From NCBI GenBank assembly GCA_963747695.1, contig CAVVFV010000008.1, forward strand, positions 203,592 through 267,591: a stretch of DNA of 64,000 nucleotides, given 5' to 3'. Both the position numbers and the translations under genes were made by a program. Below, one piece after another: positions 19,893-63,011 of the stretch. This DNA is from Candidatus Falkowbacteria bacterium (GTDB lineage: Bacteria; Patescibacteriota; Patescibacteriia; Patescibacteriales; WJLG01). Under the pieces are notes generated by a model that worked only from the letters and a program-made list of their open reading frames with translations, made no database searches and was not told where the DNA came from. Every line of letters starts with the position of its first letter. The first letter of the stretch is position 1.

Positions 19893-19897
19893 AAAAT

Positions 19898-21595
19898 ATG
19901 CTCGAACTATCAATGGCGACAATCAAAATTCTCGCGTGGTCCAAAGTAATCTTGGCTTTGTTTCTGATCGGCGGAATCTGGCTGATCTATAGTAAAAAAA
20001 TCAAAGCGGCGTATTTCTTGTGGCTAATCGGCGCGGCGGTCGTTGTTTTTTACGCCGTGATGAGCTGGAAATTGCAAAAGATGTTCTGGGGCGATAACGG
20101 CGACGAGGTATTTGTTTTTTCTTTTTTGACCAAGGCGATGTCGGCGCATCCATTCGGTGATTTCTTTTATGCCCATCTGCCGGCTTTTTATCCGCCCTTA
20201 TATTTCTGGGTCGTCGGCTGGGCGGCGAGATTCGTCACTCCTTCCGGGATCACGGCCGCCAAGATCGGCGCAGCGGCAGTACTCGCGGTTTGGTTTTTCG
20301 GCGTCTATTATTTGCAAAAAATTTATTGGCGAAAAAAAACCAATCAGGTCGAGATCATTTCTTCGCCGTGGTTTTGGCTGGCCTTACCGGCCGTGGCTTT
20401 TTTGGCCAATGACTTCAATGATCTCATCTTCAAACCCTATGAAGCTATTTCCGCGATTTTGCTGGTCGTCTGGCTGGGAATGCTGGCCAATGAACTGGAA
20501 GAAAGATGGGATTGGAAAAAATATTTACTGTTCGGCTTGAGCGGCGGGCTATTATTTTTGACTTATTATTTCTGGTGGTTCTTCGTCGTCTTGTCTCTTC
20601 TCGCTTGGATAATCTTAAGCCAAAATAAAATTTTTACGGCGGCGAGAATTGTTCTTACCGGCGCGATAATTTTTTTGGTTAGCCTGCCTTATACCTTGCC
20701 CTTGGCAATTACCTACGCCCGCCTGGGAATCGAAAATTGGCAAGCCAGCTATTTTTATTACAGCCGTTTCGTGACCTATGTGCCATTTTTAAATTTTAGT
20801 CTGGCCGGAGCATTGTTCCTGATCGGCCTGGCCGGATTGATAATCTATCGCCGCAATAATTTCGTCAGGATCAACTTGTTCTTGTTCTTGTCCTGTTATG
20901 CTTATCAATTTTTGAATATTGTGTTATTTTTAGTGAGCGGCAAATCCTATCAAGCGGAAAAAGCTTTTCCCTATCTGGCCACCGTCTCTTTGGCGGTCGG
21001 CGCGGCGTATTTATTAGTGGACGCGGGGCGCCGATTTTCCGGCAAGAAATATTTTCGCGAAGCCGCGGCGATCGTCTTGGTGGTCATCGCGATCAGCCTG
21101 CCCTTCGGTTCTTTTATCGATAGTCCGGTGGTGCTGCAGAATTTGGAGACTGATCAGCAGGGGAATTCGGCGCAATACCTCTCCGCCAAGATCAAACAAA
21201 CTGTACCTGATTATGCCACGCGTACTTGGCTCTCTTCCGGAATTCCCGAGATCAACGCCTATTTGCCGCTGGCATATTATTGGTATTCCAACCCCAGTTA
21301 TTCTAATCCGGCGGTTCATTGGTCGGTCCGTTTCAGCCAGATAAAAAAAATGACCGAGGCTAAATCGGCTGACGAATTCCAAGCCGATCTTAACGGGCTC
21401 GGAGCGGATAAGTTCGATACGCTATTGCTTTATCAGGATAAAAATTCGCAGAGTTACCCGCTGTTCTATTGGCAGGACAATTATCCCAATGCCGGCAAAC
21501 AGGAACAGCTTAATTTGAATCCCGCCTTGATCAGCGATAAATATTGGCAAAAAGTCTTTGACGATGGCGAATGGCGGATATTTTTAGCCAAGTAA
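19898..21595 (+). CDS. polytopic GT-C-like membrane protein
   Basis: Many TM spans; first loop MFWGDNGDEVF; ATG 19898 preferred over the upstream TTG 19850, which overlaps the previous gene. Confidence 0.5.
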   Translation: MLELSMATIKILAWSKVILALFLIGGIWLIYSKKIKAAYFLWLIGAAVVVFYAVMSWKLQKMFWGDNGDEVFVFSFLTKAMSAHPFGDFFYAHLPAFYPPLYFWVVGWAARFVTPSGITAAKIGAAAVLAVWFFGVYYLQKIYWRKKTNQVEIISSPWFWLALPAVAFLANDFNDLIFKPYEAISAILLVVWLGMLANELEERWDWKKYLLFGLSGGLLFLTYYFWWFFVVLSLLAWIILSQNKIFTAARIVLTGAIIFLVSLPYTLPLAITYARLGIENWQASYFYYSRFVTYVPFLNFSLAGALFLIGLAGLIIYRRNNFVRINLFLFLSCYAYQFLNIVLFLVSGKSYQAEKAFPYLATVSLAVGAAYLLVDAGRRFSGKKYFREAAAIVLVVIAISLPFGSFIDSPVVLQNLETDQQGNSAQYLSAKIKQTVPDYATRTWLSSGIPEINAYLPLAYYWYSNPSYSNPAVHWSVRFSQIKKMTEAKSADEFQADLNGLGADKFDTLLLYQDKNSQSYPLFYWQDNYPNAGKQEQLNLNPALISDKYWQKVFDDGEWRIFLAK

Positions 21596-28031: not shown

Positions 28032-30722
28032 ATGGAAACCGCCTATCCCTTAAGTGAAAGAAAATTAGATAAGATTTTTAATCCGAAGACGATTGCCGTC
28101 ATCGGCGCTTCCGACCGCGAAGGCGGCGTGGGCAACGCGCTGATGAAGAATCTGATCGGCAATAATTTCGGCGGCATCGTTTATCCGGTTAATCCGGCGC
28201 GCGAGAGCGTGGCAGGCATCAAAGCTTACCCGAAAGTTTCCGACATTCCCGATAAAATCGATTTGGCGATCATCGCCACTCCGGCGCCTACCGTTACCGC
28301 CATCGTCGAGGAATGCGGCCAGGCCGGAGTTTCCGGAATAATTATTATTTCCTCGGGGTTTGACGAGATCGGCGCCAAGGGCCATAAGATGAGCGAGGAA
28401 ATTTTGTCGACCGCCCGCGAATATGGGATGCGCATCATCGGCCCGAACTGCCTGGGATTTATCCGGCCGTCGATTCATTTGAACGCCAGCTTTGCCAACA
28501 AGATGGCCTTGCCCGGTCATATCGCTTTCATTTCTCAGTCTGGCGCGCTCTGCACGGCCATTCTTGACTGGTCGTTGAAAAATAACGTCGGCTTTTCGCA
28601 ATTCGTTTCCATCGGTTCCAACATCGATATTTCTTTCCATGATCTGATTGATTATTTCGGCGACGATCCGGAAACGGACAGTATTTTGATTTATATGGAA
28701 TCGCTGACCGAGGCGCGGAAATTCATGTCAGCTGCCCGCGCTTTTTCCCGGAAAAAACCGATCGTGGTTTTGAAAGTCGGGCGCACCGAAGCCGGTTCCC
28801 AGGCGGCTAAGTCGCATACCGGCGCGATCACCGGCAACGATTCCGTTTATGACGCGGCTTTCGAGCGCGCGGGAATAATCCGCGTTGATGGCGCTTTGGA
28901 TTTGTTCCACGTGGCCAAGATGCTGGCGATGCAGCAACGTCCGGCGGATAACCGTGTCGCGGTCATTACCAATGCCGGCGGTCCGGGCGCGATTGCCGCC
29001 GACTGGCTGGCTATGAAAGGCGGACGCTTGGCCCAATTATCCCATACCACCGTGGCCGAGCTGAAAAAATTCTTGCCGGCTGCCGCTTCCACAGTCAATC
29101 CGGTGGATATTTTGGGTGATGCCGATCAGCATCGTTACCGGCAAGCGGTGGAATTATGTCTGGCTGATCCGAACGTTGACGCGGCTTTGGTTATTCTGAC
29201 GCCGCAGGAGATGACCAGCCCGACCGATGTCGCCCGACAGATCGTTTCGATAAAAAATAAAACCGGCAAAACTATGTTCGCTTCCTGGATGGGCGGCGAT
29301 GACGTTGCCGAAGGGCGGGTGATTTTGGAAAAAGGGCACATCCCGATTTACCGCACTCCGGAGGAAGCAGTGGATATTTTTATGTATGTTGACAGTTATC
29401 GCCGGCGTTTGGAATTCTTGAAGGAAACTCCGGGGTCGGTGCCTCATGCTTTTCAGCCGAAGACAGAAAAGAATCGTGAGCTGATTGAAAAAGTTATTGC
29501 CGATCATCGCACTGTGATGACCGAAGCCGAAGCCAAGGAAATGATCGCCAATTATGGAATTCCGGTCGCCAAGAACGGTACAGCCAATTCGGCTACTGAA
29601 GCCGGAGCAATCGCTTTCCAGATCGGCTTCCCGGTAGTGATGAAAATTCTCTCGCCGGATATTTTGCATAAAACCGATATCGGCGGCGTGAAGTTGAATA
29701 TCAGTTCGCGCTCCGAAGCGGAAGCGGCCTATCATGAAATTCTGGCCGGCGCGAAAAAAGGCGCACCGAAAGCTAAGATTGATGGCGTCTTTGTCGAGGC
29801 AATGACCAAAAAACGTTATGAGCTGCTGATCGGCTGCAAGAAGGATGAAATTTTCGGCCCGGCGATCGTCTTCGGCATGGGCGGCGTAGCCGTCGAAGTC
29901 TTCCGCGACACGGCGGTCGGCTTGCCGCCTTTGAATATGTCTCTGGCTTTGAAGATGATCCAGGAAACCAAAATTTATAAATTACTGGCAGGCTATCGGG
30001 GCATACCGGGCGTGGATATTGAAGCGATCCAATTCTTGCTTTATAAATTCGCTTATCTGGTCGCTGATTTTCCCGAGATCAAAGAATTGGATATCAATCC
30101 GTTCGCGGTCGATGAGAACGGCGGCGTGGTTTTGGACGCCAAAGTTATTTTGGATGAAAAAGTTTTGGGCGTCAAACATAAGCCCTACGCGCATTTGGTA
30201 ATTTCCCCTTATCCCAAAGAGCTGGAAAAAAATATTGTTTTGAAAAATAAGAAAAAAGTTTTGTTGCGCCCGATCCGTCCGGAAGATGAAAAATTAGAGC
30301 AGGAAATGATCGATAATTTTTCCGCTCGCACCATGCGTGATCGTTTTTTGGGGAGAGTGGCTAAGGTCAATTTGGAGATGCTGCGCGGCTTCACCCAGAT
30401 CGATTATGACCGTGAGATCGCCCTGGTCGGCGTGTTGACGGAGCGCGGCCGGGTGCGTTTTATCGGCGTGGTCAGATTGATCGCCGATCCTTACAATGAA
30501 TCGGCTAGCATGGCGATCGCTATTGCCGATCCCTGGCAAGCGCTTGGTTTAGGCGGCGAGATGGTCGATTATATTTTGGATATCGCCCGCGTCCGCGGCT
30601 TGAAAAAAGTCTGGGCCGAATTTTTTCCATCCAACGAGCGGATGAAAAAGATTTTGACTAAACGGAATTTTACCCTCAAGGAGCGCGGCAAGACGATGAT
30701 CGGGGAATTGGAACTTGGATAA
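28032..30722 (+). CDS. Pat-like protein: ADP-forming acetyl-CoA synthetase (alpha+beta) fused to a C-terminal GNAT acetyltransferase
   Basis: CoA-binding IAVIGASDREGGVG, phosphohistidine loop AAKSHTGAITG, ATP-grasp region, GNAT tail LRPIRPEDE...; 896 aa. Confidence 0.85.
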   Translation: METAYPLSERKLDKIFNPKTIAVIGASDREGGVGNALMKNLIGNNFGGIVYPVNPARESVAGIKAYPKVSDIPDKIDLAIIATPAPTVTAIVEECGQAGVSGIIIISSGFDEIGAKGHKMSEEILSTAREYGMRIIGPNCLGFIRPSIHLNASFANKMALPGHIAFISQSGALCTAILDWSLKNNVGFSQFVSIGSNIDISFHDLIDYFGDDPETDSILIYMESLTEARKFMSAARAFSRKKPIVVLKVGRTEAGSQAAKSHTGAITGNDSVYDAAFERAGIIRVDGALDLFHVAKMLAMQQRPADNRVAVITNAGGPGAIAADWLAMKGGRLAQLSHTTVAELKKFLPAAASTVNPVDILGDADQHRYRQAVELCLADPNVDAALVILTPQEMTSPTDVARQIVSIKNKTGKTMFASWMGGDDVAEGRVILEKGHIPIYRTPEEAVDIFMYVDSYRRRLEFLKETPGSVPHAFQPKTEKNRELIEKVIADHRTVMTEAEAKEMIANYGIPVAKNGTANSATEAGAIAFQIGFPVVMKILSPDILHKTDIGGVKLNISSRSEAEAAYHEILAGAKKGAPKAKIDGVFVEAMTKKRYELLIGCKKDEIFGPAIVFGMGGVAVEVFRDTAVGLPPLNMSLALKMIQETKIYKLLAGYRGIPGVDIEAIQFLLYKFAYLVADFPEIKELDINPFAVDENGGVVLDAKVILDEKVLGVKHKPYAHLVISPYPKELEKNIVLKNKKKVLLRPIRPEDEKLEQEMIDNFSARTMRDRFLGRVAKVNLEMLRGFTQIDYDREIALVGVLTERGRVRFIGVVRLIADPYNESASMAIAIADPWQALGLGGEMVDYILDIARVRGLKKVWAEFFPSNERMKKILTKRNFTLKERGKTMIGELELG

Positions 30723-37089: not shown

Positions 37090-38870
37090 ATGAATAAGAT
37101 CTGGCAAATCGCGCCCAAAATCCGCGAAGGATTTTTCAAGAAATTTCCCGAATACGACCGGGTGATTTTGCAATTGCTGCATAACCGCGGTTTAAGAGAG
37201 AGCGAGGAGATGGATCTTTTTTTGCACGGACATTTTGAAAATAATTTCAGTCCCTTCTTATTCAATAAGATGGAAGAGGCGATCAATCTGACTATCACTC
37301 ATATCAAAGCGGGTGATAAGATTTGCATTTATGGCGATTACGATGCTGACGGTATGACCGCTTCGGCTCTCTTGGCTGAGGTGTTGGCGACTTTGCGCGC
37401 TGACTGTTTCGTTTATATTCCTGACCGCGGTAGCGAAGGATATGGCTTGCATCGGGAGGCGATCGACAAGGCGATAAAAAAAGGAGCGAAGCTTTTAATA
37501 ACCGTCGACGGCGGCATCCGCAATAAGGGCGAAGTCGAATACGCCCGAGCTCGCGGGCTGGAAACAATCATCACCGATCATCATACCCCGCCGGAGTCTT
37601 CAGCCAATCTGCCCGATTGTCTTGATCGTCAATCCGCACCTCAAAGGAGAAAAATATCCTTTTAAGTTCTTGGCCGGAGTCGGCGTGGCTTTCAAATTTT
37701 CCCAGGCCTTGGTGGAGCGGTCGAAATTGAACGCCGAGCAGAAAAAGAAAATTTTGGAAAAAACTTTGGACTTGGTGGCGATCGGCACCGTGGCCGATTG
37801 CGTCACTTTACTGGGAGAAAACCGGCTGCTTTTAAAAAAAGGACTGGAAATTTTAAACGAGACTAAAAGAGTCGGTTTGAAAGAATTGATGAAGGCGGCC
37901 AAGATCGAGGGCAGGCAGCTGGAGGCTTGGAATATCGGTTTTCAGATCGCGCCCCGGCTTAACGCTTCGAGTCGGATGGGTTCGGCCGGCAATGCCTACA
38001 ATCTGCTTTCGACCAAGGATAAGAATGAGGCGGAAAAAGAAGCGCAATTGCTGAACGATCGCAATCTGCGGCGGCAGAAGGAAACGGAAGAGATCGTCGC
38101 CGAGGTGGAGTTGCAGATCAAAAAGCAGTTCGAAGAAAAAATTATCATCGGCATCTGTCCGGAAAAAGCCAAGCCGTGGAACGAAGGGATCGTCGGTCTG
38201 GTAGCCGGCCGGATTGCCGAAAAATATTATAAGCCGACTTTGATCATTACTAAATCGGAAAAAGGGTTCAAGGGTTCTGGCCGTTCGATCGAAGAATTCA
38301 ATCTATTCAAAGCAATCGAAGAAGCCGGAGATTTGCTGGGCAATCACGGCGGGCATCCGATGGCCGTCGGTTTCAATGCCAGCGAGGCTAACCTTCATCT
38401 TTTCGCCGAAAAGATCAGAAAAATCGCCAAACGAGATTTGGGTCACTTGCAGCTCGAGCCGAAATTGAAGATCGACTGTGAAATCATCCTCGAGGATGCC
38501 AGCCGCGACTTTTTATCGCGAAGTCCAGAGATTGGCGCCGTTCGGCCAGCATAATCCCGAACCGAAATTTTTGAGTGAAAATATCCAGATTAAGGATATG
38601 ATGAAAATGGGGGCGAACGGCCAGCATATTAAATTCCGTTTTGGCCTGCCGATGGCTGCGGGCAGGCGGTCTGGGGGGATCGGCTTTAATCATGCCGAGG
38701 AATGGGCGGATTTCAAGATCGGTGATTTGGTCGACGCGGTTTATACTTTGGACGAGAATGAATTCAACGGCAATACCAGCCTGCAATTCAAATTGATCGA
38801 TCTGAAATTGCACGGCAGCGAGTTGATCAAGAAAGGACATTGGTCGGCGGAGACGGTATATATAGATTGA
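37090..38870 (+). CDS. recJ: single-stranded-DNA-specific exonuclease RecJ; two frame breaks as assembled
   Basis: DHH motifs IYGDYDADGMTAS, ITVDGG, ITDHHTP; DHHA1 GGHPMAVG. Track pieces 37090-37665, 37622-38554 and 38478-38870 join into ~590 aa if one nt is skipped at ~37621 and one T of T5 38510-38514. Confidence 0.85.
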
Positions 38871-38965: not shown

Positions 38966-39387
38966 ATGATTCAAAAAAAACAAAAACTTATTATTTATAC
39001 TGATGGCGGCGCGCGGGGAAATCCGGGTCCGGCGGCGATTGGCGCGGTTTTAAAGGACGAGAAAGGGGAGCTAGTCGCGGAAATTTCCGAGTATATCGGC
39101 GAGACCACTAATAATCAAGCCGAATATCGGGCGGTGGTTGCGGCCATGGAAAAAGCTAAGAAACTTGGCGCCGAGGAATTGCAATTTTTTTTGGACAGCG
39201 AATTAGTGGTTAAGCAGCTTAACCGCGAATACAAAGTCCGCGATAAAGAACTGGCGCCGTTTTTCATGAAAATATATAATGCCGCGATGGGATTTAAGAA
39301 AGTAACCTTCAAACATATTCGCCGGGAACTTAATGCGGAAGCGGAAGGTTGGTGAATGAAGCGCTGGATAATAAAAAAGTTAATTAG
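38966..39387 (+). CDS. rnhA: ribonuclease HI; 1-nt gap near the 3' end as assembled
   Basis: IYTDGGARGNPGPAAIG, TNNQAEYRA, DSELVV. Conserved EADRLVNEAL tail is readable only after a 1-nt deletion at ~39345, and then stops at TAG 39385-39387. Confidence 0.8.
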
Positions 39388-44369: not shown

Positions 44370-44993
44370 TTATTTCAAAAACTGCTGAATTATCTGTTCG
44401 AATTTATCTTCCGGGATCTCTCCCTCGATCTTGTAACCGTTGATGAAGAAAGTCGGCGTCCCGATCACTCCCAGGGACTGGCCGTCAGCATAATCGGCCC
44501 TGATGGCGTTCAAATATTTTTGGCTGGTGAAACAATTGGTAAAAACAGTTCGATTGGCGCCGACGGAAACCGCCAGGTCGGGCAGAGAAGATGTCTCAAA
44601 CTGCCCTTGCAGCGCGAACAATTTGTCATGCATCGCCCAAAATAGTCCCTGTTCGCCGGCGCATCTCGCGGCCAGCGCCAGATCAAGCGAATTGTCATGC
44701 AAAGGGAAATCCTTAAAGATAAGCTTAACTGAATTTTTATATTTAACGCTGATTTCTCTGACGGCGGTATAGTCCTCCTGACAGTAGGGGCAGGCGAAAT
44801 CGGAAAATTCAACGACAGTGACTTTGGGCGTGCTGGTGCCGAAAGAATAATCGGCCGGGCGGTCGGTCACGACGAATTTTGGCGTTGATTGGACCGGACG
44901 ATGCGGGGTGGCGAAATGCGCCACCAGCGCTCCGACCAGAATTATTGCCGCGAAAACGATGACCGTGATGGTTTTTTTGTTCATTTTATTCAT
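44370..44993 (-). CDS. membrane-anchored DsbA-family thiol:disulfide oxidoreductase
   Basis: N-terminal TM; thioredoxin-fold active site FACPYC; GTPTFFING. Confidence 0.8.
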   Translation of the reverse strand: MNKMNKKTITVIVFAAIILVGALVAHFATPHRPVQSTPKFVVTDRPADYSFGTSTPKVTVVEFSDFACPYCQEDYTAVREISVKYKNSVKLIFKDFPLHDNSLDLALAARCAGEQGLFWAMHDKLFALQGQFETSSLPDLAVSVGANRTVFTNCFTSQKYLNAIRADYADGQSLGVIGTPTFFINGYKIEGEIPEDKFEQIIQQFLK

Positions 44994-46892: not shown

Positions 46893-46958
46893 CATTTGCA
46901 ATTTGCCGATTTTTCAGCTAAAATGATAAGTGAATAATCTAGTATTCGGTATTTTTTT

Positions 46959-49811
<2,853 letters not shown>

Positions 49812-51540: not shown

Positions 51541-51659
51541 TGATGCGAATACTACAAATTTTGCGCGAATACCGCGAATAAATTAACGAATTATCTAAAA
51601 ATAATTCGCTAAATAGTTCGTAGTATTCGCGAACAATTCGTAGGTTCGCATCATATTTT
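51541..51659. repeat. B-family ~120-bp palindromic element
   Basis: tgatgcgaatactacaaattttgcgcgaataccgcgaat ... ttcgtagtattcgcgaacaattcgtaggttcgcatcatatttt runs into rsmA ATG. Confidence 0.8.
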
Positions 51660-52508
51660 ATGGATTTATTGGAAAGGACAAAGGAGATTTGTAAACTTTA
51701 TGATATCTGGCCTTCGCGCTCCAAGGGACAGAATTTTTTAGTTTCCGAAAGCGTCTATGATAAAATCGTCGCCGCAGCCGGTTTAACCAAGGATGATACG
51801 GTTTTGGAAGTCGGCCCGGGTTTGGGATTCCTGACCGCCGAATTGGCAAAGGCTGCCAAGCAAGTGATCGCTGTCGAGCTTGACGATAAACTCGCTGCTT
51901 ATTTAAAAGATGCTTTACAAGCCAATGAGGTTGATAATGTCGAGGTGGTTAACGAAAATATTTTGGATTTAGATTTTAAAAATATACGAAATACGAAATA
52001 CGAAATACGAAATACTAATTTTAAGATCGTTGCCAACCTTCCTTATAATATAACCTCGGTTTTTCTTAGAAAATTTCTCTCCAATGAGCCGCGTCCGGAA
52101 TCGATGGTTTTGCTGCTGCAGAAAGAAGTGGCCGAGCGCATTTGCGCCCAGCCCGGCGATATGTCTTTGTTGGCTCTGTCGGTGCAATTTTATGCTGAGC
52201 CGGAAATCATCGATTTTGTGCCGAATCATGATTTTTGGCCGGCGCCGAAAGTGGACTCAGCTATCATTAAGATAAAAGTTAAGAGAGAAGAGAGAAGAGA
52301 TGCTGACGAGAAGGATTTCTTCCGTTTGGCGAAGTTCGGGTTTTCGGCACGGCGCAAGATGCTCAAGAATAATCTGGCCGGCGGCTTGCATATCAAGCCA
52401 GCCGAGGCGGAAGCGATCTTGGTCAAAGCCGGTTTTAATCCCAAGATCAGGGCGGAAGATTTAGGGGTCGGGGATTGGGAAAGGATTATCAAATTGTTAT
52501 ATTGTTAA
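51660..52508 (+). CDS. rsmA: 16S rRNA (adenine1518/1519-N6)-dimethyltransferase
   Basis: SKGQNFL, VLEVGPGLGFLT (SAM motif I), ANLPYNITS. Confidence 0.9.
   Translation: MDLLERTKEICKLYDIWPSRSKGQNFLVSESVYDKIVAAAGLTKDDTVLEVGPGLGFLTAELAKAAKQVIAVELDDKLAAYLKDALQANEVDNVEVVNENILDLDFKNIRNTKYEIRNTNFKIVANLPYNITSVFLRKFLSNEPRPESMVLLLQKEVAERICAQPGDMSLLALSVQFYAEPEIIDFVPNHDFWPAPKVDSAIIKIKVKREERRDADEKDFFRLAKFGFSARRKMLKNNLAGGLHIKPAEAEAILVKAGFNPKIRAEDLGVGDWERIIKLLYC
51984..52015 (+). repeat. tandem heptanucleotide repeat (atacgaa x4.6) inside rsmA
   Basis: atacgaaatacgaaatacgaaatacgaaatac read directly; encodes IRNTKYEIRNT. Confidence 0.9.
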
Positions 52509-52580
52509 ATTGCTATATTGTTGCGCAACGAGATATTTTTTTCGTAGCACAACAATATAACAATATAGCAGTATAGCAAT
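52493..52580. repeat. A-family word palindrome overlapping the rsmA 3' end
   Basis: attgttatattgttaaattgctatattgttgcgcaacg ... cgtagcacaacaatataacaatatagcagtatagcaat; the last rsmA codons (LLYC-stop) lie in the left arm. Confidence 0.7.
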
Positions 52581-52650
52581 AAGATGATTATTGTTTTTTT
52601 TCGCCTAAATATGTTATAATTATGGACAAAGAAGATAAGCGGACTTTCGC

Positions 52651-53262
52651 ATGGCCGAGACGAAGAAAAACCTTGATAAAAAACAAAAGTTGGCTTTAGC
52701 CGGGTTGGCTGTTTTTGGTTTTATTCTGGTCGTAATCTGGCTTTTCCAATTGAACAGCGAGATTGTCGGGCCGCTCGCGGTCAATTTTTCCCCTGCTAAT
52801 ACGGCCGCGACCGCGGCTCAAACCGCCGAGGATAAATTAAAAAGCCAGGATACTGACGGTGATGGTTTATCGGATTGGGATGAAATAAATGTTTACCACA
52901 CCTCGCCTTACTTGGCGGATTCGGACAGCGACGGTATTCCCGACGGCGTGGAAGTTGCCAACGGCACTGATCCGAATTGTCCCCAGGGAAAAGATTGCGC
53001 TAATTTGGCGCCGATTGAAGCTTCGGGAACCAGCCCGGTTATCGGTCTGATCGGTGATAATACTTCGGCGGCAAGTTCGAGTCTGTCGGCCGCCAGTTCG
53101 ACGGCAATGATAAATTTGCTGACCGGCGCGACCGATGCCGCCACTTTAAGGAAGATTTTATTGCAGGCGGGAATGGACAAGGCTTCGCTTGATCAGATTA
53201 GTGATGAAGATTTGATCCAAAATTATCAACAGTTACTGGCCTCGAGCACCCCGGCGCAATAA
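52651..53262 (+). CDS. membrane-anchored protein with thrombospondin-type-3-like calcium-binding repeats
   Basis: N-terminal TM; DTDGDGLSDWDE and DSDSDGIPDGVE DxDxDG repeats; S/A-rich tail. Confidence 0.65.
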   Translation: MAETKKNLDKKQKLALAGLAVFGFILVVIWLFQLNSEIVGPLAVNFSPANTAATAAQTAEDKLKSQDTDGDGLSDWDEINVYHTSPYLADSDSDGIPDGVEVANGTDPNCPQGKDCANLAPIEASGTSPVIGLIGDNTSAASSSLSAASSTAMINLLTGATDAATLRKILLQAGMDKASLDQISDEDLIQNYQQLLASSTPAQ

Positions 53263-53298
53263 TCAACTCGGATTACATTCAATATATTATTTTAAATT

Positions 53299-56200
53299 AT
53301 GCGTTTTCAAACCGATCCAACCAAACAGGGAAAAAGAGGAAAGTTGGTGAAGATTTTGGCAGCCGTTTTTTTGGTTTTTTTCATCTCCTCATCCTTCGTG
53401 TTTATGGCGCCGCAGCCGGCCCGAGCTGATTTACCCGTCGTTGACCTTTTGGGCAACGCCATTTCCACCGGCAAGACCATTTGGGATAAAATTCAGAACG
53501 TTTTGAAAGTTCTTCTGGTCAAGGTGGCAGGTACGGCCGTTGAAACGGCTCTCTCGCATACTTTGCAAACGATCGCCTATGATGAAGCGACCTATTTGGG
53601 AACCGGCGGTACCGGGCAGAAACCGCTTTGGCAGACCGGTAATGTCGAAACTATCATGTCGAATGTCGGTCAAGACGCCGCCGGCAGCTTTATTTCCAGC
53701 TTGGATAAACAGTTCGGCGTCAACCTTTGTTCGCCGGATATTTCCGTAAAATTATCAATCGGCTTAGGTCTGGTCGGAGCGGTCAGACCGCCCGCGCCGG
53801 ATTGCACCTGGAGCCAATTATCATCGAACTGGGACGCGGCGATCAAGAAATATTCCTCTTTGAACGGCCAGGGTTTTTTGAAAGAATTCGCCCAGTCGTT
53901 CGACGTTACCGGCGGCAAGACCGATCTTTCCGCCGCTTTTTCCGTGCAGCAAGGGATGTGGGCGGCGCAAGGTCAGGCCTCTTTCAACCAGCAATTGCAG
54001 ATGACTGCCGGTTCGGCCGGGCTGATGCTTGATAATCGCAATATCGCCGGAACAGTCCAAGGAGTACCGGGGAAATCTCAGAAAGATTTTGATACTACTA
54101 TGGCGGCGCAAAAAGCCGCGCTGATGAAAACGACCGGAAGCGATCTCTCCGATCTGGTTTCGATTTTTGTCAACCAGCTGACGATCACGGGCATGCAGAC
54201 GATTATGAAAAAATTCACCCAGTCCCTGAATCAGCCGGCGGCGCAGTCGAGCATCACCAATCCTTATGCCGCGCCTCAATCCGGCGGACTTGCCGCCGCG
54301 CAAGGCGTTTTGCACAAGATAATCGAACCTTCCTTTAATACCAAAGCGGATTATGATATCTTGCAGCAATTGTCAGTTTGCAATGTCGGAGTCTTGGGCG
54401 GCGTCGGCCCGACCGATTGCGTGATTGATGATAATTTCAGCCAAGCGATCTCCAATAAGGAAACCGTTGGGGAAGCTTTTGCCAACGATACCAAACCTTT
54501 CGGATTTATCGCCCCCGGAATCGAACCTTCCTATACGCAAGGCTATCCTTACCGTTCAATGTCCATCTTGCGCAAATATCGGATCATTCCGGTTGGCTGG
54601 GAATTGGCGGCCCAATACATTAATACTCATTTTTCCGATCCCGAGGTTGCCAATCATAATAAATTGCAAGATTTGATCGCCTGCTACGACCCCAACGATC
54701 TCTATCCCGGTTTTTACGCCGATTGGTGCCGCGGTTTGATTGATCCGACTTGGGTGTTGAAAGCGCCGCAGAATTATTGCACCAAAGAAGGCTATGGCCC
54801 GCAGATCTTGAGCGCGCAATCGGTTTCCGGCGGCGTGGACGGCAATGGCAATCCTTTGCAGTCGCAGCTTCAAGTGGTCCGCTCTGATTCCTATTGCGGG
54901 GATGAGCAATCCTGCATCAAGGAAAACGACGACGGCTCATGCTATAAATTCGGCTACTGCACCGAAGACAAGCGGCTGTGGAAATTCGGCACTGCCGGTT
55001 CCTGCGACGCGCAATATAACACTTGCCAGACTTTCACCAACGCGGCGAGCGGCGCGCAGGTTTCTTATTTGAAAAATACTTTGCAATATTGCAGCCAGAC
55101 CAATGCCGGCTGCCAGCAATACGCGATCGCTTCCGCCGACGGTTATTCTTCCTCAACCGATACGCTGGATTGGACGAAAAGTTCGGATTCGGTTTTCCTT
55201 AACGCCCAGGCGCATACTTGCGATCAAAGCAATGAAGGCTGCCATGAATTTATGCGCATCGCTCCGGGGCTGGGCACTAACCTGGTGATCAATTCCAATT
55301 TTGTCAATGATACCGAAAATAATCCGCCGGCTCATTGGTCGTCGGATTCAGCCTCGGCGGTGACAGTCACTTCCAACTATCCGGCCGGCCAGACCGGTTT
55401 GGTCGCCGCGGTAAATTCCAATTCGCAAGAGGCTTTTTATTCCAAGGATTGGTCGGTCGCTGTGACTAATTTTGTTTCCGCCTTCCCGGAAGGTTTCGTG
55501 ATGGAGCCGGAAGTTTCTTATACTTTGAGCGCTGAAGTTTATTTGCAAAGCGGCAGCAGCGTGACGATCGGCATCGGCCGGGAGGGGAGCACCTGGAAAG
55601 AAGTCAACACGACGGCCGCCGGCTGGCAGCCGCTTTCTGTTACGCTTCTCAACAATAGCGATATCCTTGCCAATGAAATAAGGATTTATGGCTCAGGCAG
55701 CAGTGCTTCTTTCTATGTTACTGATATAAAATTTGAAGTCGGCGCAGCGGCAACGGCGTTCAGCACTTATTACAGCAACAATCTGGTTAATGAAAAGTTT
55801 ATGCCGGCTTATTTGCAAGATGCCTGCTATACCGACGCGGAGCACGGCGATTTCAGTTTGCGCGATAGCGCGCCCCCGATTTGCAATAATTTCGCGCGTG
55901 AGTGCAATCGGGACGAAGCCGGCTGCGATTCTTTCACCAACAATGATAACCCGGGCCTGGCGATTCCAGCCGCCATTACTGATGTCGATGCCTGCCCGCA
56001 AGTGTGCGACGGCTACAATACTTTTATCCAGAGCGAAAATAATTTTTCTTCCGCCCATGTTAAATATTTCATCCCGAGTACCGCTCAGACTTGTTCGGCG
56101 GCAGCCTCAGGCTGCCGCGAATTCACCAATCTCGCTTCCAGCACGGCCGGCGGCGAGCAGAAAGAGTATTATTCTTATCTGCGCCAATGCGTCAAGCCGA

Positions 56201-58020
56201 CCGATCCGGGCATTACCTGCGGCGATTATTATGCTTGGGAAGGCAGCGGCACCGGCGGCCAGCAATTGGTCAAATACAATTTGGAAGTGAGCGCTAATGG
56301 CACAGGACCCCAGGTGACCAGCCCTGACTCGGCTCTGTGCAGTCCGCTGGTTTACGGCTACAACCCTTTCAATCCGGCGGCTAATGCCGATTGCCGGCAA
56401 TTCTATGATAATGCGGGCCACATCTCTTATCATCTTTATTCCCGCACTGTTTCCTGCAGCAGCGCTTGCTCGAATTATCGCCTGACTCAAAAAGATACGC
56501 TTGATAATGTTGCTGATTCCGGCACCTGCGCGACCGCCGGCGGCAATTGGGATGACGCGGCGCAAGCCTGCTATGCCTGCAAAAATGGCGGCGTTTGGGA
56601 TGCCAATCAAGGCGCTTGCGTCTATCAGGCGCTCAAGACCGAGAGCACTGCTTGTTCCGCCGCTGACAACGGCTGTTCGGAGTATAACGGCAACGGCGGC
56701 GCCAATACCGAGACGATGTTTTTCGATGATTTCGAAGCAGGAACGACCGACGGCTGGGGCGGCCACCAAGCCGGCATCGATACTGCCGCTTATGTCGCCG
56801 GCACTCATTCTTTCCAATTCAGCAATTCCATGGAAAAGAATATCGGCACGACCACGGTCACCCAAGGCTCGTCTTACGTTCTGACCTTCCTCGCCAAGAC
56901 CGATAATACCGACGTCGAACTGGGAGCCGAGATTAATAATCAAACTGATCCGGCTTTGGCTTTTGATAAATCAGTGGTGGTTAAGGCCGGCGAATGGCGG
57001 ATTTACAGTTTGAGCCTGCCGGTTGTCAATCAGTCGATTACCGACGGCGAGACTTTGACCATCAAAACCATTACCGGTTCTGATCAGATTTATATCGATA
57101 ATATCCAACTGGTAAAAATATCCGACCGTTATTACCTGGTCGATGGTTCCTGGAATACTCCGGCTTCTTGTGATCAGGATACCAACCACAATCCTTATCC
57201 GTTGTTCGCTCTGGGTTGCGCCTCGTATAATGATCATCTGGGCGTTACCAAATATCTGCACAGCTTCGATCGGATCTGCCAGCCTTCGGCGGTCGGCTGC
57301 GAGGCGATCATCGATACGCAAAATACCGCTTCAGCCGATGCGGATGTTTCGCACGGCGCGACCACGACCGTGCCGGCCGACCGGATGATCTACGCCCGCT
57401 ATGACCAAAGCCTGCTCTGCGACAAGACCGACCAAGGCTGCGAACGGCTTGGTTTGAAAACTTCTTATGGCGGCGAAGCCACTTATCAGGATAGTTATTT
57501 ATTGAATAACGCTGATAATTACGGTTTCATCCTTTGCGGCCAGGGAGGAGTCGGCTGCGATCTGTATAATTATACTTCGGGCAATACGGCGGCCGCGGCG
57601 CAAACTTATTTCAAAGATCCGGGCAATCAGGTTTGCGAATGGCGCCAGTCGTCGGCAGTCGCTTCCAACAACGGTTGGGGCTGGTATAAGAAAAAAGTGA
57701 CGCGCTGCAACGGCACGGATAATATCTGCGCCTCGAACGCGGACTGTTCGGCCGGAACCTGTATTTTGGAAACGGCCGACACTCCGTGTCCGACCGATAA
57801 ATTAAAAACCATCGGCGCGGGAGGCTTAGGCAACGAAGTATATCAACCAGGGAGCGATGGGCAATATCAATGGGCTGGGCTTTGTCCGGACGATCAGTCA
57901 AGCTGCACGGAATATATCGATCCGGTCAGCAGTTTTTCCGGTAACGTTGTGGCCAACGCCGACTTCAGCCAGAATATCGGCAATCAGCCGAATGCGGCTG
58001 ATAACTGGGATAATAAATAA
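53299..58020 (+). CDS. giant cysteine-rich surface protein, segment 1 (1573 aa)
   Basis: Signal/anchor KILAAVFLVFFISSSFVFMAPQPARA; many Cys; jelly-roll/CBM-like modules ending FYVTDIKFEV (55282-55740) and IYIDNIQLVKI (56719-57120). Confidence 0.75.
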   Translation: MRFQTDPTKQGKRGKLVKILAAVFLVFFISSSFVFMAPQPARADLPVVDLLGNAISTGKTIWDKIQNVLKVLLVKVAGTAVETALSHTLQTIAYDEATYLGTGGTGQKPLWQTGNVETIMSNVGQDAAGSFISSLDKQFGVNLCSPDISVKLSIGLGLVGAVRPPAPDCTWSQLSSNWDAAIKKYSSLNGQGFLKEFAQSFDVTGGKTDLSAAFSVQQGMWAAQGQASFNQQLQMTAGSAGLMLDNRNIAGTVQGVPGKSQKDFDTTMAAQKAALMKTTGSDLSDLVSIFVNQLTITGMQTIMKKFTQSLNQPAAQSSITNPYAAPQSGGLAAAQGVLHKIIEPSFNTKADYDILQQLSVCNVGVLGGVGPTDCVIDDNFSQAISNKETVGEAFANDTKPFGFIAPGIEPSYTQGYPYRSMSILRKYRIIPVGWELAAQYINTHFSDPEVANHNKLQDLIACYDPNDLYPGFYADWCRGLIDPTWVLKAPQNYCTKEGYGPQILSAQSVSGGVDGNGNPLQSQLQVVRSDSYCGDEQSCIKENDDGSCYKFGYCTEDKRLWKFGTAGSCDAQYNTCQTFTNAASGAQVSYLKNTLQYCSQTNAGCQQYAIASADGYSSSTDTLDWTKSSDSVFLNAQAHTCDQSNEGCHEFMRIAPGLGTNLVINSNFVNDTENNPPAHWSSDSASAVTVTSNYPAGQTGLVAAVNSNSQEAFYSKDWSVAVTNFVSAFPEGFVMEPEVSYTLSAEVYLQSGSSVTIGIGREGSTWKEVNTTAAGWQPLSVTLLNNSDILANEIRIYGSGSSASFYVTDIKFEVGAAATAFSTYYSNNLVNEKFMPAYLQDACYTDAEHGDFSLRDSAPPICNNFARECNRDEAGCDSFTNNDNPGLAIPAAITDVDACPQVCDGYNTFIQSENNFSSAHVKYFIPSTAQTCSAAASGCREFTNLASSTAGGEQKEYYSYLRQCVKPTDPGITCGDYYAWEGSGTGGQQLVKYNLEVSANGTGPQVTSPDSALCSPLVYGYNPFNPAANADCRQFYDNAGHISYHLYSRTVSCSSACSNYRLTQKDTLDNVADSGTCATAGGNWDDAAQACYACKNGGVWDANQGACVYQALKTESTACSAADNGCSEYNGNGGANTETMFFDDFEAGTTDGWGGHQAGIDTAAYVAGTHSFQFSNSMEKNIGTTTVTQGSSYVLTFLAKTDNTDVELGAEINNQTDPALAFDKSVVVKAGEWRIYSLSLPVVNQSITDGETLTIKTITGSDQIYIDNIQLVKISDRYYLVDGSWNTPASCDQDTNHNPYPLFALGCASYNDHLGVTKYLHSFDRICQPSAVGCEAIIDTQNTASADADVSHGATTTVPADRMIYARYDQSLLCDKTDQGCERLGLKTSYGGEATYQDSYLLNNADNYGFILCGQGGVGCDLYNYTSGNTAAAAQTYFKDPGNQVCEWRQSSAVASNNGWGWYKKKVTRCNGTDNICASNADCSAGTCILETADTPCPTDKLKTIGAGGLGNEVYQPGSDGQYQWAGLCPDDQSSCTEYIDPVSSFSGNVVANADFSQNIGNQPNAADNWDNK

Positions 58021-58321
58021 AACTGCAAAATATAAATTTGGAAGGCGGAACTTTGTATGTTTTGACGGTGCAAGGAAACAATACTGCGCACTTGAATTTT
58101 AGCAATGGCACGCCCTTCCACGTGCTTCAGGCGGATAATTCATTCGCTCCGGCCACCAATAATATTCAGGTCGGCCCTGATTCCAGTATTCTTTTCTATA
58201 CCGATAACACGATCCAGCAAATCAAAGTACAGCTAATGCGGCGGCTCGCGCCAACGGCAACAATCAGAGTACGATTATTTTAAGGAAAGCCATTGTCAAT
58301 TATCATCTGGCTGACGGATGA
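58017..58321 (+). other. linker segment of the giant gene readable only by frame hopping (1 -> 0 -> 2 -> 0)
   Basis: Frame 0 gives KLQNINLEGGTLYVLTVQGNNTAHLNF...; frame 2 gives NAAARANGNNQSTIILRKAIVNYHLAD; both match the composition of the flanking protein. Confidence 0.5.
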
Positions 58322-61300
58322 TAATGGAGTCGATAAGAGCTCCTGCTCTCAGGGGGCCAATCCTTCGGCCGGCTGCGTTTATTTCAATGAAAGAAGCGTC
58401 TTGACCGGCACGGGCGGCTTCGAACCCTTGGCCAACAACATCGATCCTTGGAAAGATTATGGCATTCTCAATATCAATGCCGCGAGTTCGTTCAATCTGG
58501 CCAACGGTCCCTTGCCGATCAAAGTCAATCCGGATCGCGACTGCGCCCAGTGGCTCGCCTGCAAGAGTTATGTTCAGGATGCCAATACTAACAATAAAGT
58601 CTGTTTCGATATTGCCAATTGCAACCGCCTGGATGATTCCGGCAATTGCGCCAACTTCACGGTCCTGACCGACAACCAGCTCGGCAACCGCATTTTTCCT
58701 ACCTCGACCGCGGAAAATCTTGATACGATCAAGAATCTGACCGGCTATGTCCGGGTGGGTTATCCGACCGTCACTGCCTTTTCCGATTTGCGGAACATCC
58801 CGAGCGATCTGCTTAACCCCGGCGCCATGTCTCAAATCGGCAAGAATCTGATCGTGCCCAACGGCGATTTTGAATTAGCCATCGTCACTTCGACGCCGAT
58901 TAATGCCGGCGTGAACTGGATCGGTGACCCGTCCAATTGGACGCCTTACGGCGGCGGCATCGGCTGGACGCGGGATACGGCTGATTCGATGTTCGCGGTA
59001 ATTTCCGATCCGCAGACCGCGCAAAATTACGGTTTCTATACCGACCGGTCCAAAAGCGCCGATACTTATCCGATGATCGGCAAATCTTTCTTGCGCTATA
59101 ATGCCACCACTCCGGACGGCAGCTCGGATAATTTCCCTGTCTCGGACGTGATCAATGTCCAGCCCGGCCAGGATTATTATCTTAGTTTTTACGTCGATAC
59201 TTTCGGATTGAAAGACAATGATCCGAACAATAAAGCGGTCTATGCCGACATCAGAGTTCTTGATAGCAGCGGCGATGTGATCAGTTCGGTCCAGCAAGGC
59301 TATCAGGACGGCTGGGAATTGAAAACTCAAAAATTCACCGTCCCCAAAACCTCCAAAACTATCAAACTGCTTTTGGCGGCGACCGCCAATTCTTCCGGCA
59401 ATGTTTATGTCGACGATTTCGAGATCACGCCGGTGCTTTTGGCGCGCCAGGCTTCCAGCTATGTTGATTCATCAATCGGCAACGGCGGCCAGTCGGCGAA
59501 TATCCCCAACCTGTTTGACCGCCAGACCTGCCGGCTTTTCCCGCAGGAAAATTCTTTGTCCTGCGAATACACCGACGACGCTGGAATACTCCAGAAAGGC
59601 GACCGCGGCTATTGTCTGCAATATGATCACGCCCCAGGCGATCCGAACGCCTGCATCCTATGGTGGCCAATCGACCAAGTCAAAGGCGCCGGCATCCAGG
59701 CCAACCAAGCCGTCGGTTATGACGGCCGCTCGCCGCTGTATTACTGCACCAAGTCTCTCTTTACTAATTTATCCTATGCGCCAAGCGATTTGACTTTCGT
59801 TAATAGCGCCAGTTTTGTCTATAGCATTAACGGCAGCAATAACGGTGTTGGCGGTAATTCTTTATCGGGCGCCTTCGATGCCGATCCGAGCTGCAGTATT
59901 CTTGGCGAACTTTTTGGCAGTATTACCAGTATATTTACCGGCATCCCAAATCTTGCCGACGTTTTTAGTGCGAGCGGTTTTGACGGCGTTGATGTTAATA
60001 AGGGTCAGACATATGGCACGTTGGGCAACAGCACTCCTATGGTGCTGAACTATGGCACCAATGTTATCCAAGTTACTCTAAGTCACGAAAATGCCGGGGA
60101 TTGCAGCAAGCATAATCCTAACCTGTTTGATCTTTCGGGGAAATATCATTATTTAGATGGCGATCAAACGATAACTAAAAGTTTTGATTTTGCGCAGATG
60201 TACCAGGATTTGATGGTGAATGGGAGCACGAATAGTTGTAGCGATGATCCTTCAAAACCAATCTCCGGTTGTAAACAGGTCCAAACTTATTCTGACGGCA
60301 GCACCTTCCAGGCTCATTTTGGTTGTGGCGTCCGAGACGACAAAGATAGTGATGGTAATAGGGTAGGCGATGATAGTGTAAAAGTCTCTAATAATTTGAT
60401 TGATTATACTTATTGTAATCAAGACAAAGGTAGCGGAAACATAATTTTAACTTACACCTTTAATATTTCCAATAGTCCGGCTTGTGCCCAAGTAGCCCAA
60501 GTGGTTGATGCGAGCGGACGGAATGACGCCTGGACCGAAAGAGTCAGACAAGGGAGCTCTTATGATGAGGCTACTTGCAATAAAAATATGCCGACTTCGT
60601 TCTTCTTTTCACAGTACAATAGCAATCCGCCAATTTTTGCTTTTGCCTCGCCCAGTAGTAATCCAATATTCAGTGGTCAAACTGTTTCAACTAAACCAGC
60701 CGGCAGTCCGACCGGCAACATCTGCGCATCGACTGCCACCACTTCGCCGTTCGGCTCGGCCAATCCTCCGGCGGGAAATATAATTTTCTTGAGTGATCCT
60801 TCGCATTGGAAAAATCCTTTGCCTTACTGGTCAAGCACCACGGCGCTTAGCGCGCTTCAAGGTTCAATGGGCCAGCTTTATGCCAAGAATGATTTGAGCA
60901 ATCTTTTTGCCCAAAGCCTGGGCGTTTGGGATTGGTCGACCACGACCAACTCATATCTGCATGCCCCCGACGCGGAAGGCTGGACGGCGACGACGATCAG
61001 ATGCGACAACAATGTCCGGCCGGCCTGCTCGGCGACGACCAATTGCAATTGCGCCGTGGCGCCGACGGTTGCCAATCTTGATTTGAATGGCGCCGGCTCG
61101 GCCTATCTTTACGGGCGGGGATTTGTCAATCTGACATTCAATTCCACGGTCGACCCGGAGCAGGCGCCGCTCGCTTCTTATTCGATCGATTGGGGCGACG
61201 GCACCTCTTCAGTCCTTGATGTTTCCGGCGCCGATATGAACGCCCGTCCGCCCGGCACATCGCCGCATTCGGTCTATCACGCTTATGACTATTACGATCT

Positions 61301-61663
61301 CCTGAATAAATATAATAAAGGCGAAAATGACGGTGACGGCTACCGCACCCTGCCGACGTTATTCTGTGATGATACGAAATGCACCGTCAAGCCGCGAGTA
61401 AAAATAGTTGATAACTGGGGTTGGTGTTCGGAAGGAATAAATGGCAAATCTTGTCCGGTTATCAATATCACTGATCCGATTAATGGTGCGGGGTATTGTA
61501 TGAATTCAGCGGGAGATTACTATAGAACCGGTTCAGCGTTGCTGGAGCGATAACACCACGGGAATTACATCCCGGTAAAACCTGCACTGCTAATCCGTCC
61601 TATCCTTATTGTGATGATGGCTGGTATGAATCAGGCGGGCAGATAGTCATCTACAAACAATAA
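58293..61663 (+). CDS. giant cysteine-rich surface protein, segment 2, with the true C-terminus in the -1 frame after ~61532
   Basis: CBM-like module ending VYVDDFEITPV (58848-59435); PKD-like YSIDWGDGTS...HAYDY (~61075-61300); tail SVAGAITPRELHPGKTCTANPSYPYCDDGWYESGGQIVIYKQ ends TAA 61661-61663. Confidence 0.7.
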
Positions 61664-61725
61664 AAATAAAACCATAATTGATATTATGGCTTTTATTGAA
61701 TATTAGCCGAAATATTAATATTTTA

Positions 61726-61754
61726 TTGACCTTGGGATGAAAATATGCTATTAT
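61726..61754 (+). promoter_or_regulatory. sigma70-like promoter with extended -10
   Basis: TTGACC 61726-61731, 17-nt spacer ending TGc, TATTAT 61749-61754. Confidence 0.5.
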
Positions 61755-61842
61755 TATGACAGCAATTTATACCCCAAAAAGGTATAAAACGCACCTTGAA
61801 AAGTGAGAAGGAAAAAAAGTTTCAATTTAAAAAGGGAGGAAA

Positions 61843-63011
61843 ATGAAAAAGTATTAGTCACTCTGTTGTTGCTGGTCGCTTTCGCGGCCACGTCGTCGGC
61901 GATTGATTTATCAACCTGGCATGTTTTGAATATTCCGGGCACGGGCAGTTTGGGCGGCTCATACATTAAGAAAACCCAGATGGCACGGCATAATTGTCTG
62001 ACGCTGGAATGCTATCGATGCGTCGACCGGAAATTGCGCTAATCGGCAAAATTCCGGTTATGGGCGTTACGGTAAGGGACGTGGATTGGGACAGTCATAA
62101 AAATATTTGGGGTGCGACCAGCAATGGTTTGGTGCGTGTCGGTCTCAATGACACATCCACTTATCTGACCGCGGACGGAATGCCCAGCAATTATCCGTGC
62201 GAACGATCGAGTGCGATTCCGCTAATAATCGTTTAATCATCGGATCGACTGATAACGGTATGGCGATCATCAAACAGGACGCATCCGGCAAGCCCCTTTC
62301 GTTTCAGAATGTTTTTGCCGGGCAGGGTATCCAAAAAGTGGGAACCTATGTCCAGGAAATTTGGGGCGTAAACACGATGCGGGTTTATCATTATGATGGA
62401 TCGAACTGGATCACTTATGACACGGGCAGTTCAACTATCAGATTCCCGTTTGGCGCTTTTGTCGCCAAGAAACGGGAACGCCTATGTCGGAAGCGATAGT
62501 CGCGGTTAACGGTTATATCGCCGTTTTTGATCATCAATCCGGTTTGTGGAGCAAAATTATTCCTGACTCCGGCGTCACCCACGGCTCGACTATTCCCAGT
62601 CTCGTAGTGGACAACCAGAACGCGCTTTGGTTTACGTGTGCGAAATATCTGGTGCGGATTGATTTGACCACGATGAAAAACGAACGGATTCCGCTCGACG
62701 GCAGTGTTGTTCCTTGTCTGAATAACACGATCATGGGGTCAGTTGATCCTGTGCTCGGCCTTACCGACGATGGCAATCTGCTGATTGCGGCCTATGCTGC
62801 GATCGTCGAAGTTAAAAGCTCTAATGCTGTCCTATGGCATCCGACGCTTGCGCCGAAAGTCGCCCGCGGCAGTTTCCAGATCATCGGTCAGATCAACCCC
62901 TTGGGCCGAATGATCAAATCCTTCTCACCGAATTCGGTTTCCGGAGTCAGCTTTACGCTGATCCGGACAGCCGAAGGAATGAAGGCGGTCAAAACGCTTA
63001 TCGCTCGATAA
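61843..63011 (+). pseudogene. exported beta-propeller-like repeat protein, at least 4 frame breaks as assembled
   Basis: ATG 61843 behind SD agggagg; signal peptide MKK-VLVTLLLLVAFAATSSA needs one more A in A5 61846-61850; track pieces 61803-62042, 61994-62236, 62197-62499 and 62484-63011 concatenate; NIWGATSNGLVRV-type blades. Confidence 0.6.

Follow-up and report, generated by a model that had tools for sequence, protein, structure and literature searches.

The question raised by this stretch of DNA is whether a run of large open reading frames (ORFs) towards its right-hand end encodes three proteins or one. The window, meaning the whole 64,000 nucleotides that were analysed, comes from Candidatus Falkowbacteria bacterium (GenBank assembly GCA_963747695.1, contig CAVVFV010000008.1, positions 203,592 to 267,591 of the forward strand), and on its plus strand the ORF list gives 53299-58020 (1573 amino acids, aa), a short piece at 58038-58283 and a last long ORF at 58293-61553 (1086 aa). 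An earlier note, made from the letters alone, had proposed that they form one gene of about 2,780 codons for a cysteine-rich surface protein. Comparison with homologues shows that 53299-61663 is a single gene with a product of about 2,787 aa, and that it belongs to a family of giant, Cys-rich secreted proteins of Patescibacteria that is unnamed and undescribed. The explanation that accounts best for the whole, and which is held with moderate confidence, is that this one gene encodes a secreted, lectin-bearing stalk or adhesin that would work with a type IV secretion system (T4SS).

Evidence for a single gene comes from tblastn with three homologues, P0001, P0003 and P0005, which together cover 53299-61663 from end to end across three frames. 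For the 2816-aa P0001, residues 1-1583 fall on 53299-58011 in frame mod 1, residues 1588-2770 on 58023-61514 in frame mod 0, and residues 2790-2816 on 61577-61660 in frame mod 2. Residue alignments gave the full path, which runs in frame mod 1 over 53299-58017, mod 0 over 58020-58229, mod 2 over 58232-58318, mod 0 again over 58320-61529, mod 1 over 61531-61572 and mod 2 over 61574-61660, with the stop codon at 61661-61663. There are five frame changes, in the order 1, 0, 2, 0, 1, 2, at about 58018, 58230, 58319, 61530 and 61573, and the DNA alignment to the syntenic relative has gaps of 1-2 nt at these sites. The detour into the third frame at 58232-58318 reads 'ANAAARANGNNQSTIILRKAIVNYHLADG' and pairs almost residue for residue with 'ANVAPRANGNQSTIILRKAIVNYHLSEG' of P0001; staying in frame 0 throughout, which would meet a single in-frame stop at 58281, was ruled out, since the frame-2 detour fits the homologues residue for residue. 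The 14-codon piece at 61531-61572 reads 'VQRCWSDNTTGITS' and corresponds to the family motif 'RCWSN'. Read along this path, the repaired protein of 2,787 aa is 67% identical to P0001 over 100% of its length and 60% identical to P0003 (2791 aa).

Three independent genes, as the ORF map suggests, would agree with the ORF list itself and with the deposition of the 1573-aa first ORF on its own as a protein (P0002) in public collections. The homologues run unbroken over every junction, however, the downstream pieces have neither a signal peptide nor a plausible start, and the pieces at 58038-58283 and 61531-61572 only make sense inside the long protein. Nor do the homologues occur as separate genes with signal peptides of their own: 80 related loci were fetched, from which the counts out of 57, 49 and 62 loci are drawn, and 55 of the 57 complete ones have one ORF of 2,476-3,033 aa, the ORFs being shortened in the remaining two. 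With homologues continuous across the junctions and single ORFs in the related loci, three separate genes were ruled out, and the probability left to them is close to nil. The single gene of the earlier note therefore stands, and the peptides that it quoted are all present where it placed them, while its join of three ORFs with a tail in the -1 frame was right about the Cys-rich tail reaching 61663 but missed the 14-codon piece and the full number of frame changes.

Why a single gene should be interrupted five times is a separate matter, which can be approached through the genes around it. The locus of the closest relative, L001 (GCA_028707065.1), is collinear with the window at about 43.3-63 kb and has an intact gene for 2816 aa. 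In the window, the leucyl-tRNA synthetase (LeuRS) gene (46956-49811, plus strand) contains a compensated -1/+1 pair of indels, 45 nt apart, at 47720-47770, which scrambles a conserved editing motif relative to L001; an in-frame stop at 47757-47759 leaves ORFs at 46959-47759 and 47877-49811. RecJ (37090-38870, plus strand) is broken into three overlapping ORFs with the DHH, DHHA1 and RecJ_OB domains, and two more frameshifts are therefore implied. The next gene downstream of the giant gene (61881-63008, plus strand), a homologue of a 386-aa protein of L001, is scattered over three frames.

A genuine recent pseudogene, with no error in the sequence and a protein that is gone from the strain, would explain the five disruptions together with the disruption of the adjoining 386-aa-type gene, and it would have counterparts in the two loci out of 57 with shortened ORFs; surface proteins are, moreover, frequently lost or phase-varied. 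Such decay is nevertheless improbable. The same type of indel hits the essential LeuRS, in its conserved editing motif, and RecJ, and over 8.3 kb there are no stops besides those produced by the frame shifts. In an alignment of 116 homologues, which underlies the statistics on cysteines, occupancy and conserved positions throughout, the repaired protein retains 355 of the 369 positions with a conservation of 90% or more, as compared with 350-356 in intact relatives, and all of the conserved cysteines (67/67). The indel sites are also not the long homopolymers of the phase-variation type. Because the essential LeuRS is broken alike and there is no sign of relaxed constraint, the frame breaks are read as consensus or assembly indels, and very probably they are errors of the contig and not biology. 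Two points count against this: the error explanation is indirect, being drawn from sequence comparison and not from reads, and the breaks are clustered, with three of them inside 300 nt and the other two inside 45 nt.

A Logan contig of 2,199 bp (L086, run ERR11748453) was assembled independently and is 100% identical to the window over 51625-53823, so that the same strain was sequenced in that run; it ends before any indel site. Exact look-ups of P0002 and of the ORFs at 62484-63011 and 38966-39355 for an independent copy returned nothing, nor did a metagenome scan for the 58319 junction or a literature search on the run accession ERR11748453. With the giant gene, LeuRS and RecJ all split by indels, annotation of this assembly will under-report intact genes.

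The breadth of the family became apparent once the pieces had been joined. A search of protein collections with the joined pieces gave 588 homologues, and the best 120 of these are nearly all single proteins of 2,200-3,100 aa from metagenome-assembled genomes (MAGs) of Patescibacteria. Relatives turned up in 249 species-level genomes when genomes were scanned, under titles that name Falkowbacteria, Parcubacteria or 'Patescibacteria group', and a literature search found no paper describing a giant Cys-rich protein family of this kind. The repaired protein has the orphan N-terminal domain of the family, its conserved Cys pattern and collinearity over the full length. Many third-party annotation (TPA) MAG records with a Patescibacteria-type locus (within L006-L085) are titled 'uncultured Gammaproteobacteria bacterium', and these titles look like placeholder or mislabelled taxonomy.

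From its N-terminus, the protein begins with a predicted Sec-type signal peptide, made up of a basic n-region, a 20-residue hydrophobic core and a cleavage-like ARA/D site, and the same layout is present in all 11 homologues inspected. The N-terminal domain that follows has no match in Pfam, NCBIfam or PDB. Its most conserved block is aa 350-500 ('EGYPYRSMxILRKxRIIPVGWELAAQ'), and AlphaFold2 (AF2) models it with confidence over aa 370-490 only. Searched against 1.84 billion representatives, a profile of this domain retrieved 1,673 clusters, of which 1,079 have E<=1e-30, and among the best 150 profile matches it is always N-terminal in giant proteins. The whole protein contains 86 cysteines, 71 of which are conserved in at least 80% of the homologues and many of which form C-x6-C pairs; the first three Cys-rich linkers have a repeat of about 70 aa in common (hhalign probability 85% for K1~K2). 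At 44370-44993 on the minus strand, 8 kb upstream of the giant gene, there is a gene for a DsbA-like thioredoxin, which fits a need for extracellular disulfides.

Between the linkers are modules that resemble carbohydrate-binding modules (CBMs). Module 2 scores 31.2 bits (E 3.2e-7) against Pfam CBM_4_9 (PF02018) and is the only one above the gathering cut-off of 25.9, and module 4 also matches CBM_4_9_1 (E 3e-4). Among PDB profiles, module 1 matches 4d0q (E 2.4e-4) and module 2 matches 4xup (E 1.5e-4), and the family profile retrieves CBM22, CBM4 and CBM70 structures. Modules 1, 2 and 4 are mutually homologous, with hhalign values of 95.6% for M1~M2 and 94.9% for M1~M4. The AF2 model of module 1 has a pLDDT of 70-91 and finds 2zey by Foldseek (E 8.4e-7, TMt 0.73), module 4 finds 2y64 (E 4.3e-8, TMt 0.70), and 8xmz reaches a TMt of 0.80 with the models of modules 1/4; both models superpose on CBM4/16/22 structures with TM 0.7-0.8, as expected of a jelly-roll fold. 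These profile matches and models support the view that modules 1, 2 and 4 are CBM4/9/16/22-like jelly rolls and predicted lectin modules. They have the beta-jelly-roll fold in common with CBM 4/9/16/22 (PF02018) and match it weakly to moderately in sequence, but here they are unattached to any recognisable glycoside hydrolase. Module 3 is conserved and, in agreement with P0001, continuous across the ORF boundaries, but it has no Pfam or PDB-profile match, its hhalign probabilities against modules 1 and 2 are only 28% and 10%, and its resemblance to the other modules is at the motif level only. As a fourth CBM it is not demonstrable.

Could the lectin-like modules serve an enzyme? CBM4/9/22 modules are usually found with glycoside hydrolases, and some invariant residues of the N-domain are acidic, such as E435 in 'GWELAAQ'. 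The protein might then be a secreted cell-wall or polysaccharide hydrolase that replaces VirB1, with a catalytic N-domain and CBM modules that target it to its substrate, and VirB1 homologues are indeed rarely near virB4 in most Patescibacteria classes (PMC12102498). The N-domain, however, tried as an enzyme, matched no catalytic family in Pfam, NCBIfam or PDB profiles, and about 2,000 aa of disulfide-rich spacer with a hypervariable domain suit a binding stalk better, which makes a hydrolase quite improbable. In the viral library, the closest structural matches were to phage receptor-binding proteins, to tail fibres and to minor tail proteins (CBM/F5-8 type C tips), which have the multi-domain beta-sandwich build and a variable target-recognition part in common with the giant protein. 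This likeness is local and at the level of domains (the global root-mean-square deviation is very large), whereas the gene is a cellular one, is not surrounded by phage genes and lies in conserved synteny on the chromosome.

In the hypervariable domain, occupancy among the homologues falls to 0.09-0.56, and identity to P0001 is 37-51% as compared with 60-87% elsewhere; the domain is folded in the AF2 model. Diversification by a diversity-generating retroelement (DGR) was considered and set aside, as blastn of the gene against the whole 64-kb window found no second copy or template repeat. The next domain is an Ig-like beta domain with a WGDG...H.YH.Y motif. No Pfam PKD match was found for aa ~2485-2744 at E<=10, and the family profile of the Ig-like region retrieved only a designed Ig domain from the PDB (E 0.007). 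The earlier note had called this region PKD-like; a PKD domain was not detected, and only the WGDG...H.Y motif and the Ig-like strand pattern are reminiscent of one.

The other features foreseen in that note mostly survive. An N-terminal signal, numerous paired cysteines and a protein of candidate phyla radiation (CPR) or Patescibacteria origin without a recognised close family all agree with the results above; three of its four CBM-like modules (1, 2 and 4) are upheld by Pfam and Foldseek, while for the junction-spanning one continuity holds and CBM identity is undemonstrated. To judge by these features, it is likely that the protein is exported by Sec, contains about 40 disulfides and displays three CBM-like lectin modules, together with the hypervariable and Ig-like domains, outside the cell. 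The coordinates are given in Table 1.

Table 1. Features of the giant gene and its upstream neighbour, in window positions.
Feature	Position	Strand	Remarks and evidence
Whole gene	53299..61663	+	2,787 codons + stop via five frame changes; tblastn P0001/P0003/P0005, alignments, repaired translation
Predicted Sec-type signal peptide (aa 1-43)	53299..53427	+	read from sequence; same layout in 11 homologues
Orphan conserved N-terminal domain (aa 44-520)	53428..54858	+	alignments A2, A4; profile search
Cys-repeat linker 1 (C-x6-C units)	54796..55263	+	Cys alignment; hhalign K1~K2 85%
CBM-like jelly-roll module 1 (ends FYVTDIKFEV)	55252..55794	+	CBM_4_9, PDB profile, AF2, Foldseek
Cys-rich linker 2	55801..56694	+	Cys alignment; AF2 pLDDT 80-88 for aa 940-1120
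CBM-like module 2 (ends IYIDNIQLVKI)	56692..57084	+	CBM_4_9, PDB profile, hhalign
Cys-rich linker 3	57082..57942	+	Cys alignment, linker repeat
Module 3, conserved, fold unproven	57931..58337	+	spans three of five frame changes
Frame change 1	58018-58019	+	one base missing; inside module 3
Frame change 2	58230-58231	+	two extra bases relative to L001; inside module 3
Frame change 3	58319	+	one extra base; inside module 3
Cys-rich linker 4	58329..58847	+	Cys alignment
CBM-like module 4 (ends VYVDDFEITPV)	58845..59453	+	CBM_4_9, CBM_4_9_1, hhalign, Foldseek
Hypervariable lineage-specific domain (aa ~2200-2500)	59895..60797	+	alignment occupancy, identity to P0001, AF2
Conserved Ig-like beta domain (IDWGDG...HSxYHxY)	61050..61412	+	AF2 strands 916-990 of model 2
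Cys-rich C-terminal tail	61413..61663	+	contains two frame changes
Frame change 4	61530	+	extra base; in C-terminal tail
Frame change 5	61571-61573	+	extra C within CCC run; in C-terminal tail
Possible upstream partner, 203-aa membrane-anchored TSP3 protein	52651..53262	+	Pfam TSP3_bac E 2.9e-11; ends 36 nt before giant gene

What such a protein might do is suggested by its neighbours. Four fully inspected loci, at 33-67% identity, have a gene order in common: LeuRS, in some cases a major facilitator superfamily (MFS) gene, KsgA, a small TSP3 membrane protein and the giant gene, followed by a small membrane protein (some 165-206 aa), a VirB6-like protein, two unknown genes, PrgI (VirB3-like) and a TraC-like protein. 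In L001, the 386-aa gene comes directly after the giant gene, ahead of the small membrane protein; the homologue of this gene in the window has weak beta-propeller-like Pfam hints and is found only in the closest relatives (L001, L007 and L010). The VirB6-like protein is about 805-940 aa long, with a TrbL_3 match in three of the four loci, and a VirB4-like ATPase is next in the three loci whose flank extends that far. It is followed in two loci by a membrane protein of about 225 aa, and in one by DsbA too, the Falkowbacteria locus L004, where the DsbA gene (28379-28799) closes the T4SS cluster. The 225-aa protein (L003 27257-27934; L004 27659-28324) has one N-terminal transmembrane helix and could be a VirB8-like component, a component that is mostly confined to class ABY1 (PMC12102498).

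The same arrangement recurs in the wider set. Of the 49 loci with at least 4 kb of downstream sequence, 46 have a VirB6-like gene there, KsgA is upstream in 57/62, and the TSP3 gene is directly upstream in 60/62; in many loci all the genes are on the same strand with short gaps. The TSP3 protein has two calcium-binding repeats of the TSP3 type along with a CPQGKDC pair, and it is a possible partner or anchor of the giant protein. Directly after the stop codon of the giant gene, within 61664-61760, an AT-rich hairpin can be seen by eye (CCATAAT-TGAT-ATTATGG, then CTTTTATT), which a terminator scan did not call, and a promoter-like TTGACC-17-TATTAT with an upstream TG is at 61726-61754.

A phylum-wide survey of the T4SS describes VirB4, TrsD, VirB3, VirB6, VirB8 and VirB2-like components and did not detect adhesins such as PrgB (PMC12102498). 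The conserved gene order suggests that the giant protein may work with a monoderm-type (MPF-FATA-like) T4SS, a partnership to which slightly less than an even chance is given. It might instead be a surface or envelope protein unconnected to the T4SS, used for general host attachment or as an envelope scaffold, with its synteny merely inherited. The functionally unlinked LeuRS and KsgA show almost the same degree of synteny, and the neighbourhood of virB4 commonly includes KsgA and other housekeeping genes (PMC12102498); the by-eye hairpin and promoter-like site after the stop would also suit such a protein, as would the loci that lack a downstream VirB6-like gene. Still, all five loci that have lost the upstream KsgA keep the VirB6-like gene downstream, and the genes are co-directional with short gaps in many loci, which leaves an unconnected envelope protein rather unlikely.

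Several further observations weigh against a lectin-bearing adhesin that works with the T4SS. The window ends 2.3 kb past the gene, so the T4SS genes are seen in related loci only, and gene order, in which LeuRS and KsgA are just as syntenic, is the whole of the link; inherited order in small genomes could explain the proximity, and 3/49 loci have no VirB6-like gene within 5.5 kb. On the side of the protein, modules 1 and 4 are under the curated CBM_4_9 cut-off (20.4 bits, E 6.9e-4, and 20.0 bits, E 9e-4), the N-terminal AF2 model is poor (pLDDT 55.7), and the repaired protein has no LPXTG-like motif and no evident C-terminal transmembrane segment.

Two other observations were made in the window. 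LeuRS has a NUDIX domain, at aa 75-198 of the second ORF, inserted after its editing domain, an insert that is also present in the 1002-aa LeuRS of the closest relative but not in those of three more distant relatives (815-842 aa); we know of no described LeuRS-NUDIX fusion. At 16738-21595 (plus strand), there are three consecutive large ORFs of 486, 565 and 581 aa, the last of which has the N- and C-terminal domains of an AftA-like arabinofuranosyltransferase, while the 486- and 565-aa ORFs have no Pfam match.

The mechanism proposed for the preferred secreted adhesin is as follows. The giant protein would be exported by Sec and stiffened by its approximately 40 disulfides, and it would be retained, either on the cell surface or at the T4SS, by its N-domain together with the small TSP3 membrane protein. 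Its distal lectin and hypervariable modules could then bind glycans of the host envelope and so place the secretion channel up against the host, which would make the protein a functional analogue of a PrgB-type adhesin or a pilus in lineages in which no such adhesin has been found. Export, disulfide formation, anchoring, glycan binding, the adhesin role and the partnership with the T4SS are all inferred.

The closest comparison is with PrgB/aggregation substance (pCF10, MPF-FATA), which is likewise a large secreted surface protein beside genes for T4SS channel components (VirB6-like, PrgI, VirB4), genes that are here in homologous loci, and which has a similar presumed role in making or stabilising cell-cell contact. 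The two have no sequence or domain homology, with CBM_4_9 the only Pfam match here, and the giant protein has no LPXTG anchor; it is twice the size, disulfide-rich and built with lectin-type jelly rolls and an orphan N-domain. The T4SS concerned here, unlike the PrgB system, has no relaxase and is thought to be non-conjugative (PMC12102498). In Saccharibacteria, which belong to the same phylum and have the same kind of T4SS, epibiotic growth requires both the T4SS, whose role is unknown, and several glycan-binding adhesins (PMC10633639, PMC11665869). This comparison, with Southlakia epibionticum (Wang et al. 2023, PMC10633639), was made by description; VirB2-like pilin arrays are present in that cluster, whereas the giant family comes chiefly from records with Falkowbacteria, Parcubacteria or 'Patescibacteria group' in the title.

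That the gene is split is in itself an ordinary result, and the noteworthy part is a large unnamed family placed before a T4SS for which no host-contact component is known. The only Patescibacterium examined genetically cannot grow as an epibiont without its T4SS (PMC10633639, PMC11665869). A more tentative extension is that the family, which forms over 1,000 clusters at the 50% identity level, might be the host-contact organelle of the Patescibacteria T4SS in Falkowbacteria-like lineages: a disulfide-stapled lectin stalk of about 2,700 aa, docked by its N-domain to the extended VirB6-like protein and the small TSP3 protein, which would replace the pilus or PrgB-type adhesin and whose hypervariable domain would set the host range. 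The giant protein may be a T4SS-linked surface adhesin candidate built from parts other than the known ones. Strictly conserved, and standing at the head of the T4SS cluster in hundreds of genomes, it is a concrete candidate for how Patescibacteria cells grip their hosts, and its hypervariable domain is a candidate determinant of host range.

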